From a virus (lineage: Duplodnaviria > Heunggongvirae > Uroviricota > Caudoviricetes): 27,206 nt of DNA. Made by a program: the position numbers. Of this stretch, positions 24,001-27,000 are shown piece after piece. Location of the stretch: the IMG/VR virus record IMGVR_UViG_2695420523_000013; one strand, 5' to 3'. Positions within the stretch are counted from its first letter, which is position 1. Every line of letters starts with the position of its first letter.

Positions 24001-27000
24001 AACCCGGTACGCTGAATGATTTTCTCGGTGCCATGACGGAGGATGATGCCCGTCCGGAGGCACTGCGACGTTTTGAACTGATGGTGGAAGAGGTGGCGCG
24101 TAACGCTGAGGAGGCGAAGAAGAATGCCGGAGAGGCGGAGACGTCAGCGAGGAATGCCGGCATATCAGCCAGTCAGGCAGAAAAGAGCGCTGCACATGCT
24201 GACACTTCAGCAGGATATGCATCGGAGTCAGCCCGGCAGGCGGCAGAAAGTGCAGCCTCAGCAAAGCAGTCAGAGGAGGCGTCCTCGTCCTCGGCCTCTG
24301 AGGCCGCTCAAAAAGCCAGTGAGTCATCACAAAGTGCAGCAGAAGCTGAATTGTCAAGAAAGACGGCAGAAAGTGCAGCCGGTAATGCAGCCAGGGATGC
24401 AACGACCGCAACAGAAAAAGCCCGGGAGTCAGCAGAAAGCGCACAGTCAGCGGAACAAAGCAGGATAGCGGCGGAAGACGCCGTAAACCGAATCCCCACC
24501 GTGGTGGGACCTCCTGGGCCAAAGGGGGAACAGGGGCCCGCGGGTCCTCAGGGGCCGAAGGGTGATAAGGGAGAGCGCGGTGACACCGGCCCTGTCGGGG
24601 CAACCGGCGAACGGGGACCGGCAGGTGATGCTGGTCCGGCAGGCCCGCAGGGGCCGAAAGGTGACAGGGGAGAGCGGGGAGAGACCGGTCTGACGGGAAA
24701 TGCAGGTCCACAGGGTCCAAAGGGAGACACCGGGGCAGCAGGCCCGGCAGGCCCACAGGGACCGAAAGGAGAAACAGGTGCGGCTGGCCCGGTGGGGGCA
24801 ACCGGACCTCAGGGACCGAAGGGCGACCCGGGGGAGACACAAATCCGTTTTCGTCTGGGGCCGGCGAGCATTATTGAGACAAACAGCCATGGCTGGTTCC
24901 CGGGTACAGATGGTGCGCTCATCACCGGACTGACCTTTCTTGACCCCAAAGATGCCACACGGGTTCAGGGTTTTTTTCAGCATTTGCAGGTCAGGTTTGG
25001 TGACGGGCCATGGCAGGATGTTAAGGGACTGGATGAAGTGGGCAGTGATACAGGCAGAACTGGAGAATGACATGAATATTTTGAGAAAGCTTATGCAGAG
25101 TCTGTGCGGTTGCGGAAAGCATGATGACCGTGAAAACGGGGAGTTACTTACAGCACAACTGCGACTGGGACCAGCAGACATTCTGGAGTCAGATGAGAAT
25201 GGCATTATTCCGGAGCAGGACAGGGTGATTACGCAGGTGGTGATACTGGATGCAGATAAAAAGCAGATACAGTGTGTGGTAAGACCGCTGCAAATCCTGC
25301 GTGCTGACGGGACGTGGGAAAATATTGGCGGGATGAAATAGCCGACAGCTTCACAAAAACCGGAGTCCGGCTCCGGTTTTTGTTGTCATGTCATGGTGGT
25401 GTTTGTTAGGAAACCAAAGGTGGCAAAACTGCTGGAGGTTTTGTGGTTGAGTATGCCAATATAATTAATAGATTAAAGAGTTAGTTGTGAAGAAAATATG
25501 GATAAACAGGACGACGAATGCTTTCACCGATAAGGACAACTTTCCATAACTCAGCAAATATAGTGCAGAGTTCCCCCTGTCAAACGGTTTCTTTTGCAGG
25601 AAAGGAATATGAGTTAAAGGTCATTGATGAAAAAACGCCTATTCTTTTTCAGTGGTTTGAACCTAATCCTGAACAATATAAGAAAGATGAGGTTCCAATA
25701 GTTAATACTAAGCAGCATCCCTATTTAGATAATGTCATGAATACGGCAAGGATAGAGAGTGAGCGTATGATAGGTGTTTTTGTTGATGGCGATTTTTCAT
25801 TCAGTCAAAAGGTTGCTTTTTCAAAACTGGAACAAAATTTTGAAAATATAATGATAATATATCGGGAAAATGTTGATTTCAGCATGTATGATAGAAAACT
25901 ATCAGATATTTATCATGATATTATATGTGAGCAAAAGTTACGCTCTGAAGCCAAAAGAGATGAATACTTGTTGAATCTGTTGGAGAAAGAGTTGAGTAAA
26001 ATTTCAAATGCGCAGGATTCTTTGATTTATATGTATGCAGAGAAGAGAGATCATACATGGTTTGACTTCTTCAGAAATTTAGCCTTATTGAAGGCAGGAG
26101 AAATCTTTAGATGCACAGATAACACAAAGAATCATGGGGTTTTATCCGGTGAGGGGTGTATATATCTTGATATGGATATGATGCTTACAGGTAAGCTTGG
26201 TGTAATGCGTGCTCCAGATGGAATTGCAGTACATGTTGATCGTCGTAATGACAGTGTAAATATTGAAAATGGTGCAATAATTGTTAATCGTAGTAATCAT
26301 CCGGCTTTACTTGAGGGGTTGTCTTTTATGCACAAAAAAGTAGATGCTCATCCATATTATGATGGATTAGGAAAAGGAATTAAGAAATATTTTAATTTTA
26401 CTACATTGCATGATTACAATCATTTTTGTGACTTTATTGAGTTTAAACACAAAAATATTATTATGAACACAAGTCAGTACACAGGAAGTTCATGGTAAAA
26501 CCACCTCCTGTGGAGGTGGTTGCTTGCAGTCAGGTGTTTCGGGTCTGTGGCTTTTTGTGTTCTCTGGTAAGTGGTTGCTATTCTTTTGTGTTGTGTATCT
26601 CTGTTTCTATAGTTTTAGATAGCCATGTCATCTCAGTAGCTGCGAGTTTTAGTTTTGGGGTTCTGTCTCCTGCTCCGGGTGGACGCATGTCAAAAGTGCA
26701 GGATTTTCTGCTGAATACTGTGTAGTCATTTATAGAGCATGTTGTTGAGGTTAGTGTATGAACCGCCCCGGAAATCCTGGAGACTAAACTTCCTGAGAAA
26801 GAGGTAAACAGGATGACTAAAAATACTCGTTTTTCCCCTGAAGTCCGTCAACGGGCAGTCCGTATGGTTCTGGAAAGTCAGGGCGAATATGACTCACAAT
26901 GGGCGACAATTTGTTCCATTGCTCCAAAGATTGGCTGTACGCCGGAGACTCTGCGTGTCTGGGTTCGCCAGCATGAGCGGGATACCGGAGGCGGTGATGG

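Follow-up and report, generated by a model that had tools for sequence, protein, structure and literature searches.

EPclA is a collagen-like prophage fiber of 437 aa from enterohemorrhagic Escherichia coli (EHEC). PfC, the C-terminal module borne by this fiber, forms a trimer in isolation and nucleates refolding of the collagen (Ghosh 2012, PMC3368898). An open reading frame (ORF) encoding only a PfC has also been described after the fiber gene. In Sp5, no frameshift signal was found that would fuse this ORF (ORF68) to the fiber gene (ORF67), and the same study classed ORF68 as non-essential and proposed it as an intragenomic reservoir for fiber variation (Mondal 2016, PMC5155283). Here, we analyzed this arrangement in a 27,206-nt stretch of DNA from a Caudoviricetes virus (IMG/VR record IMGVR_UViG_2695420523_000013), referred to below as the window. 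The window carries a side tail-fiber gene of the EPclA type and, directly downstream of it, an 89-aa ORF (the small ORF, encoding the small protein) that contains a second PfC. We tentatively read the small ORF as a real, expressed, and co-translated late gene whose product is dedicated to the PfC tip as a non-essential partner and may act as a helper or transient cap.

The arrangement is already published and catalogued. The gene corresponds to ORF68 of Sp5 (ECs1229; VT2-Sakai/Sp5), L0122 of 933W, 'gp59' of phi24B, gp24 of phage 434 (CPT_434_24), and atfT of AU5Stx1, and it is catalogued as PHROG 576. These named counterparts are 92-98% identical, encode 89 aa, and share the same junction after an EPclA or EPclB fiber as well as the same terminator; copies in the phage database are all at least 80% identical, and almost all exceed 90%. 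The window does not differ materially from the named phages; here, the prophage around the pair is lambda-like, and an NleB2-like effector gene follows. Record labels include 'tail fiber assembly chaperone' (phage 434), 'alternate tail fiber tip' (AU5Stx1), and 'tail fiber protein', and PF06820 members are called 'phage tail fiber C-terminal domain-containing protein'. For annotation, the gene can be taken as real; names such as 'tail fiber protein' or 'assembly chaperone' are unproven guesses. Literature searches on the locus tags, 'alternate tail fiber tip', the fibers of phage 2B8, and a second virion proteome yielded nothing further about the small protein. The new elements are estimates of selection, counts of co-occurrence, the finding that the pair is conserved in a contractile-tail prophage, where the small gene holds the position of a tail fiber assembly (Tfa) protein, a possible fold link to the fiber tip of phage Mu, and peptides from a public data set; this is not a new kind of system.

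Two PfC modules in adjacent genes

An initial annotation, made from the sequence alone, described the small ORF as a detached paralog of the fiber C-terminal module, encoded directly downstream. It placed both modules correctly, and the proposed similarity proved significant, far beyond chance. In a single BLASTP comparison, fiber residues 366-427 and small-protein residues 29-88 shared 22 of 62 identities (35%) and 60% positives, with two one-residue gaps (E = 1e-10). Both proteins fill the whole 64-position PF06820 (Phage_fiber_C) model, with scores of 125.9 bits for the fiber and 123.3 bits for the small protein against a cut-off of 25 bits. The motif register noticed at the outset (RLGPA-I-E ... 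IT ... LD ... LQ ... DG-W) corresponds to invariant columns of a 12-sequence alignment (G33, G44, P47, I53, T54, L59, L73, Q74, D79, G80, and W82), and the small protein keeps every family-invariant PfC residue. By sequence, the fiber tip and the small protein are paralogs inside one curated family. Because its PfC is complete and retains all of these residues, the small protein is expected to trimerize.

The small ORF comprises an N-terminal segment of 27 aa with a Cys-Gly-Cys-Gly-Lys linker, PfC at aa 28-89 (nt 25153-25338), and a TAG stop, and its product fills positions 1-89 of the 89 positions of PHROG 576 (E = 3.5e-60). A Pfam scan of the small protein at E ≤ 1 returned PF06820 only, with no Tfa (Caudo_TAP) domain, and NCBIfam returned nothing. 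We considered a lipoprotein signal at the N-terminal LCGC motif and ruled it out, as no hydrophobic core precedes the Cys and the motif is not kept in the ortholog at locus L086.

No solved PfC structure was found when the PDB was searched by sequence, using either the small protein or the family profile as query. Unlike PfC, the attachment domain of the fiber (PfN) does have a structure, since PfN residues 3-96 (nt 23757-24038) match the solved 94-aa chain 9e7m_Ta ('Tail fiber protein', E = 9e-52). A first AF2 model of the small protein, built from the 12-sequence alignment, had a pLDDT of 63 and gave only noise in a Foldseek search against the PDB, and we set it aside. A single-chain model from a 17-sequence alignment had a pLDDT of 78 overall and 85-92 across the domain. 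In it, residues 3-12 form a short helix at the N-terminus, a linker modelled with low confidence follows, and the domain itself has six beta strands. In its predicted fold, the protein resembles the C-terminal tip of the Mu fiber; hhalign gave no support for this likeness, which we therefore treat as suggestive. The distal end of the Mu fiber is the site of action of its Tfa. Mu Tfa binds the distal part of the fiber and stays on the virion (PMC9608196).

The junction between the two genes has the geometry of coupled translation, as the initial annotation proposed. The GGAG motif is followed by the fiber stop (TGA, 25068-25070), one spacer base, and the ATG at 25072. This offset is kept in all 77 related viral contigs that have upstream sequence, nearly all of which also have a GGAG-type motif. 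In a larger set of loci, the TGAC/ATG junction was likewise kept and the GGAG-type Shine-Dalgarno motif was nearly universal, and the annotation of phage 434 marks the same ribosome-binding site. A consensus scan found no sigma-70-like promoter on the plus strand between 23000 and 25500. Given the terminator-like hairpin in the interval upstream of the fiber gene, transcription of the fiber gene and the small ORF probably relies on antiterminated late transcription. Downstream, the strong hairpin 3' of the small ORF has a folding energy of -24.3 kcal/mol (z = -5.2), and none of 200 shuffled sequences was as stable. The same hairpin lies 3' of the small ORF in phage 434 and in a contractile-tail prophage (L085), and also beside relic copies of the ORF. 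This terminator closes the unit of fiber gene and small ORF, and the effector cargo begins beyond it.

Selection, translation, and co-inheritance of the small ORF

For estimates of selection, the small ORF and the fiber tip before it were taken from the window and from two sets of viral contigs, each made up of the best 80 of about 280 matches to one of two query alleles. In the PfC part of the small ORF (codons 28-89), dN/dS was 0.046 in the first set (58 full-length alleles, dS 0.13) and 0.071 in the union of the sets (110 full-length alleles, dS 0.14), values in which dN is biased somewhat downward by picking loci for protein similarity to the two query alleles. The N-terminal 27 codons gave 0.25 and 0.30, and the fiber PfC gave 0.24 and 0.36, in the first and union sets, respectively. 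Only 1 of 128 small ORFs was broken (by a stop), versus 7 of 120 fiber tips, and the small ORF was still intact at most loci whose fiber tip was broken. The PfC domain of the small protein is under strong purifying selection at the protein level. At one locus (L151, about 2760-3000), the 3' end of an insertion sequence (IS) transposase gene, which we take to be IS66-like, abuts the last bases before the ATG of the small ORF and replaces the fiber tip; the small ORF is intact.

The small protein is translated and is present at trace abundance in one virion preparation. The virion proteome of phi24B, given as a supplement to a 2026 cryo-EM preprint (10.64898/2026.04.10.717836), includes two peptides found only in the small protein, VITQVVILDADKK and the C-terminal ADGTWENIGGMK. 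Each was represented by at least 3 spectra, compared with at least 2267 spectra for the fiber. The authors annotated this row with the remark 'Spike or just gp59?' (10.64898/2026.04.10.717836). Such low-level virion peptides fit a helper that is carried over in small amount. In the same study, globular density at the tip of gp56, the central needle, was left unassigned, and the authors proposed an unidentified receptor-binding protein there (10.64898/2026.04.10.717836). Nothing ties this density to the small PfC protein, though the small protein is among the few small late proteins detected in that preparation.

The small ORF and the PfC-type fiber tip occur together in a nearly one-to-one ratio. 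Among phage records, 296 carry the small ORF and 296 carry a fiber-type PfC, with the same organism breakdown. Among 5426 complete E. coli genomes, 698 carry the small ORF (6396 places, median 10 per genome) and 697 carry the fiber tip (6160 places). The pair is carried by lambda-like siphoviruses, including phage 434, and by the short-tailed Shiga toxin (Stx) phages 933W, AU5Stx1, and phi24B. A profile search of 1.84 billion representative proteins recovered only 97 relatives. Most of its long matches with multiple stretches appeared to be chimeric or contaminated gene calls, such as a major histocompatibility complex class I (MHC-I) protein with a PfC fragment, and were set aside. A scan of species-representative genomes found the small ORF only in E. 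albertii and in one 725-bp contig labelled Xanthomonas pisi (L083, NZ_JPLE01000138.1). The small ORF of this contig is 97% identical, and the contig is almost certainly E. coli prophage contamination of a Xanthomonas assembly.

A more distant ortholog, one of the 97 relatives from the profile search, is present in the contractile-tail prophage L085. The ortholog has 79 aa and an overall identity of 59%, rising to 67% within the domain, and retains the N-terminal pattern M-x-I-x-K-K ... L-x-G-C-x-K. It follows, with a 14-nt overlap, the gene for a 212-aa non-collagen fiber that ends in a diverged PfC; this fiber gene comes after Baseplate_J and DUF2612 genes, and a terminator of the same kind follows the ortholog. 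The nearest phage relatives of the baseplate J-like protein are 44-48% identical and include proteins of Vibrio phages VBM1 and XM1. The VBM1 homolog is annotated as a baseplate wedge subunit, and XM1 is described in the literature as a contractile-tailed myovirus. At another locus, a Stf-like shaft is joined to the same type of tip. By these comparisons, the PfC tip and the small PfC protein travel together, with no fewer than four different shafts and in three tail architectures.

Between the lambda-like and contractile-tail lineages, the small proteins are 67% identical over the domain and the fiber tips are 39% identical, while the paralogs are 30-38% identical to each other. Since the fiber tips are about as divergent across lineages as the paralogs are, the duplication is old, predating the split of the lineages, with both copies retained. 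By these alignments, the free-standing copy is the slowly evolving paralog. A metagenome contig (L169, 3505-5202) encodes a 565-aa phage-like protein (P0231) with four tandem ~80-aa repeats ending '...VVVLDAD...GILRVRQADGTW.EIPA.KG'. These repeats resemble the small-type PfC and are followed by collagen repeats and another domain, so PfC-like units can be internal and are not confined to C-terminal caps.

Candidate roles of the small protein

As a partner of the PfC tip, the small protein would be produced through translational coupling at the 3' end of the fiber message and would form a small trimer of its own. Acting as a helper or transient cap, this trimer would meet the fiber tip while folding is under way or once it is complete, and it could affect fiber folding, stability, or adsorption. 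The small protein would then fill the genomic and functional place that Tfa proteins occupy in Mu, P2, and lambda. A transient or sub-stoichiometric contact with the tip is favored by the position of the gene, by its strict co-inheritance and coupling, and by the trace abundance of its product in virions. The decay of relic copies that lie away from the fiber gene also counts in favor of a tip partner.

Several observations weigh against this reading. Sp5 lacking ORF68 forms plaques and lysogenizes in K-12, whereas the fiber gene ORF67 is essential there (PMC5155283); as the deletions were made in a K-12 MG1655 lysogen, complementation by other prophage copies is impossible. Recombinant EPclA and PfC trimerize in E. 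coli without the small protein (PMC3368898). The small protein lacks the Caudo_TAP domain of Tfa proteins, and it is far more conserved than the tip, where tip-specific recognition might predict co-variation. The downward bias in dN caused by locus selection belongs on the same side. An infectious ORF68 deletion and a self-folding EPclA mean that the small protein is not an obligatory chaperone and that fibers in K-12 can do without any help it gives. Of the possibilities raised in the initial annotation, an assembly or capping factor thus remains the best fit by position and by co-inheritance with PfC tips across three tail types, but in the obligatory form it is ruled out by these published data.

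A bolder version of the tip-partner reading, which we regard as doubtful, holds that classical Tfa has been replaced in PfC-tipped fibers by a paralog of the tip domain. The small protein would act as a 'self-mimic', seeding or capping the trimeric tip, and the two genes would form a module that has moved among siphovirus, podovirus, and myovirus tails of attaching/effacing enterobacteria. If true, a helper homologous to its own client domain would be an unusual mechanism of fiber assembly.

Alternatively, the small protein could be a free, soluble knob, that is, a PfC trimer without a shaft that works outside the virion, either after lysis or in the infected cell. It might, for example, occupy a conserved surface ligand and so spare progeny from loss on debris or infected cells, or it might have another host-directed role. 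The small protein has neither a PfN attachment domain nor a shaft, isolated PfC self-trimerizes (PMC3368898), and the protein is dispensable in the laboratory and found only in traces by virion proteomics. Its conservation, well above that of the fiber tip, would also suit a conserved ligand. However, it lacks both a signal peptide and a promoter of its own, its copies decay once parted from the fiber gene, and a free knob does not require strict adjacency and coupling to a PfC-tipped fiber in three tail types. On balance, we consider this role unlikely.

Somewhat less probable again is a stable second tip, in which the small trimer docks on the PfC knob and serves as the actual or an alternative distal receptor binder, like gp38 in T2/T6-type phages. 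The position of the gene would suit such an adhesin, and the AU5Stx1 label 'alternate tail fiber tip' carries this sense. Peptides are present in purified virions, and dispensability on rough K-12 would be expected of an adhesin that serves natural hosts bearing O antigen. Yet the two peptides together account for at least 6 spectra against at least 2267 for the fiber, far below an equimolar ratio even after correction for length. Receptor-binding tips also usually evolve fast, whereas the small protein is the slow paralog.

The proposal of Mondal 2016 that the small ORF is a silent spare cassette, a sequence reservoir for recombined fiber C-termini, appears improbable. A paralogous tip module does adjoin the fiber gene, and one sequence, P0062 (L081, 4-291), joins collagen Gly-X-Y repeats straight to a small-type PfC at the shared 'GPA' motif. 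We did not accept P0062 as evidence of cassette exchange, as its start lies 3 nt from one end of a 3.3-kb contig assembled from short reads, and it may be an assembly artifact rather than a genuine recombinant fiber. At the DNA level, the two modules are 52% identical, and their longest identical run is 7 nt. A 7-nt identity is too short for RecA-type exchange. No hybrid alleles were found among about 270 protein clusters. The initial annotation had seen no invertase or inverted repeats, and we found the same: the ORF list for 22000-27206 contains no recombinase other than an IS3-family OrfA at the window edge, and within 23600-25600 we found a single inverted repeat, a weak 20-nt pair flanking neither PfC module. 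Moreover, a dN/dS of 0.05-0.07, intact ORFs in 127 of 128 copies, and translation indicate selection on the protein itself. Together with a paralogy that predates the split of the lineages, these results disfavor the first of the three options offered in the initial annotation, which chose none of them: that the small ORF is a spare tip module left by cassette exchange.

Relic 3' fragments of the small ORF, with stops and frameshifts and accompanied by the same terminator, lie among effector genes 1-3 kb downstream of the intact copy (Table 1). This suggests that the 3' end of the small ORF and its terminator form a recurrent recombination joint at which cargo cassettes are stacked.

Recoding, by a +1 shift or by readthrough near the fiber stop, would produce a fiber with both PfC domains, and the phi24B authors considered such products as 'Fusion_6159_FS1/2' (10.64898/2026.04.10.717836). 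In 110 of 123 loci, the frame of the small ORF stays open over 46 or more codons upstream. The stop context is UGA-C with an SD (Shine-Dalgarno)-like GGAG just upstream. In the other 13 loci, stops interrupt that frame 10-16 codons before the ATG. The final sense codon is GAA, for which re-pairing on AAU in the +1 frame is not possible, and readthrough in frame ends after 17 sense codons. The conserved Shine-Dalgarno motif and ATG are as expected for independent initiation, and Mondal 2016 (PMC5155283) reported no shift signal. We therefore regard recoding as very improbable. Equally hard to credit is a functionless remnant of a truncated second fiber gene, conserved merely through youth: the small ORF resembles the 3' end of a fiber gene, but it has almost no amino acid changes at a dS of about 0.14, it has orthologs in a distant lineage with a different fiber, and true relics decay. 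A decaying remnant is excluded by the selection and translation data, and the truncated second fiber gene offered in the initial annotation is further disfavored by the conserved N-terminal extension, Shine-Dalgarno motif, and ATG that the small ORF has of its own and by the 127 of 128 intact alleles.

Locus layout and comparison with known fiber systems

The prophage is lambdoid, and its tail end lies in the 3' part of the window. Features of the region are listed in Table 1.

Table 1. Features of the fiber/small-ORF region in the window and relic copies in related contigs
Feature	Position (nt)	Strand	Basis or remark
J tip protein	19510-23025		
Terminator-like hairpin, first of two flanking lom	23044-23063		
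Lom/Ail outer-membrane protein	23093-23692		
Terminator-like hairpin, lom/fiber interval, second of two flanking lom	23719-23740	+	Consensus scan: 8-bp stem, 7 GC pairs, T-run
Side tail-fiber gene, EPclA type	23757-25070	+	ORF list; Pfam PF08400, PF01391, PF06820; architecture and length of EPclA
Fiber-borne PfC (trimerization/tip module, faster-evolving paralog)	24843-25034	+	PF06820 positions 1-64
GGAG Shine-Dalgarno motif for small ORF	25062-25065	+	Inside last fiber codons, 6 nt 5' of ATG
Small ORF, 89 aa, ATG to TAG	25072-25341	+	PF06820 positions 1-64; PHROG 576
Intrinsic-terminator hairpin, strong: A-tract, GC-rich stem, U-tract	25353-25383	+	RNA fold
NleB/SseK-family arginine glycosyltransferase effector	25518-26498		Pfam PF24688, E = 1e-170
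IS3-family OrfA-like ORF	26813-27139		Runs toward window end
Relic small-ORF 3' fragments	L017 about 5040-5170; L062 4954-5100 and 7233-7340		Also in L018, L020, L022, L024, L025, and L067

The fiber ORF spans 23751-25070 (439 codons) and opens at a GTG at 23751. Homologs begin two codons further 3', at the ATG at 23757 (MAVKISG...), which by this comparison is the likely true start and yields the canonical EPclA length of 437 aa. In the 439-aa numbering, PfN occupies aa 3-135 and is followed by an alanine-rich coiled-coil region, collagen Gly-X-Y repeats (aa 253-363), the PfC tip (aa 365-428), and an 11-aa tail before the TGA. Upstream of the fiber gene, the terminator-like hairpins that bracket lom are arranged identically in phage 434, consistent with lom being a separately regulated moron within the late operon. 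Downstream, the NleB effector begins 135 nt past the terminator, and its closest E. coli records are labelled NleB2; phage 434 has an NleB pseudogene at the equivalent spot.

These collagen-like fibers sit on Shiga toxin phages and on roughly ten prophages per genome of EHEC or enteropathogenic E. coli (EPEC). With this abundance, they probably shape the spread of toxin and effector genes. The authors of the phi24B cryo-EM study list the function of this fiber as an open question (10.64898/2026.04.10.717836). The small gene, which is under tighter constraint than the tip and constantly travels with it, is a specific and inexpensive target for deletion and binding work.

Among known systems, the small ORF can first be compared with the Tfa genes (U/U' of Mu, G of P2, and tfa of lambda). 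In both cases, a small gene lies directly 3' of the fiber gene, and the two-gene module is co-inherited with the tip. In L085, the small gene holds the slot of Mu U, and the predicted fold of the presumed client tip domain resembles the C-terminus of the Mu fiber. Some Tfa proteins remain on the virion and others do not (PMC9608196). In contrast to Tfa proteins, the small protein is half the size, has no sequence relation to them, and was dispensable in one deletion test. It is also paralogous to the domain presumed to be its client, a relationship that Tfa proteins lack.

The gp38 proteins of T-even phages, which are chaperones in T4 and distal adhesins in T2, T6, and S16, are likewise small separate proteins encoded downstream of a distal fiber gene, with a chaperone-or-tip role. 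The small protein has no homology to gp38 and none of its glycine-rich motifs, and it is very conserved rather than hypervariable and present only in traces in virions. The invertible cassettes of Mu (G segment) and P1 (C segment) similarly hold two versions of a fiber C-terminal module in one locus. Here, however, there is no invertase or inverted repeat, the second module has the same orientation and its own Shine-Dalgarno motif and ATG, the copies are too diverged to recombine, and small-protein peptides are detected without rearrangement. In domain content, the small protein is like the PfC of EPclA itself, a domain for collagen trimerization and registration that is functionally like the T4 foldon and collagen NC1. 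Its PfC is complete, but it lacks a shaft, whether collagen or coiled coil, that would need registration, and a short predicted helix precedes the domain.

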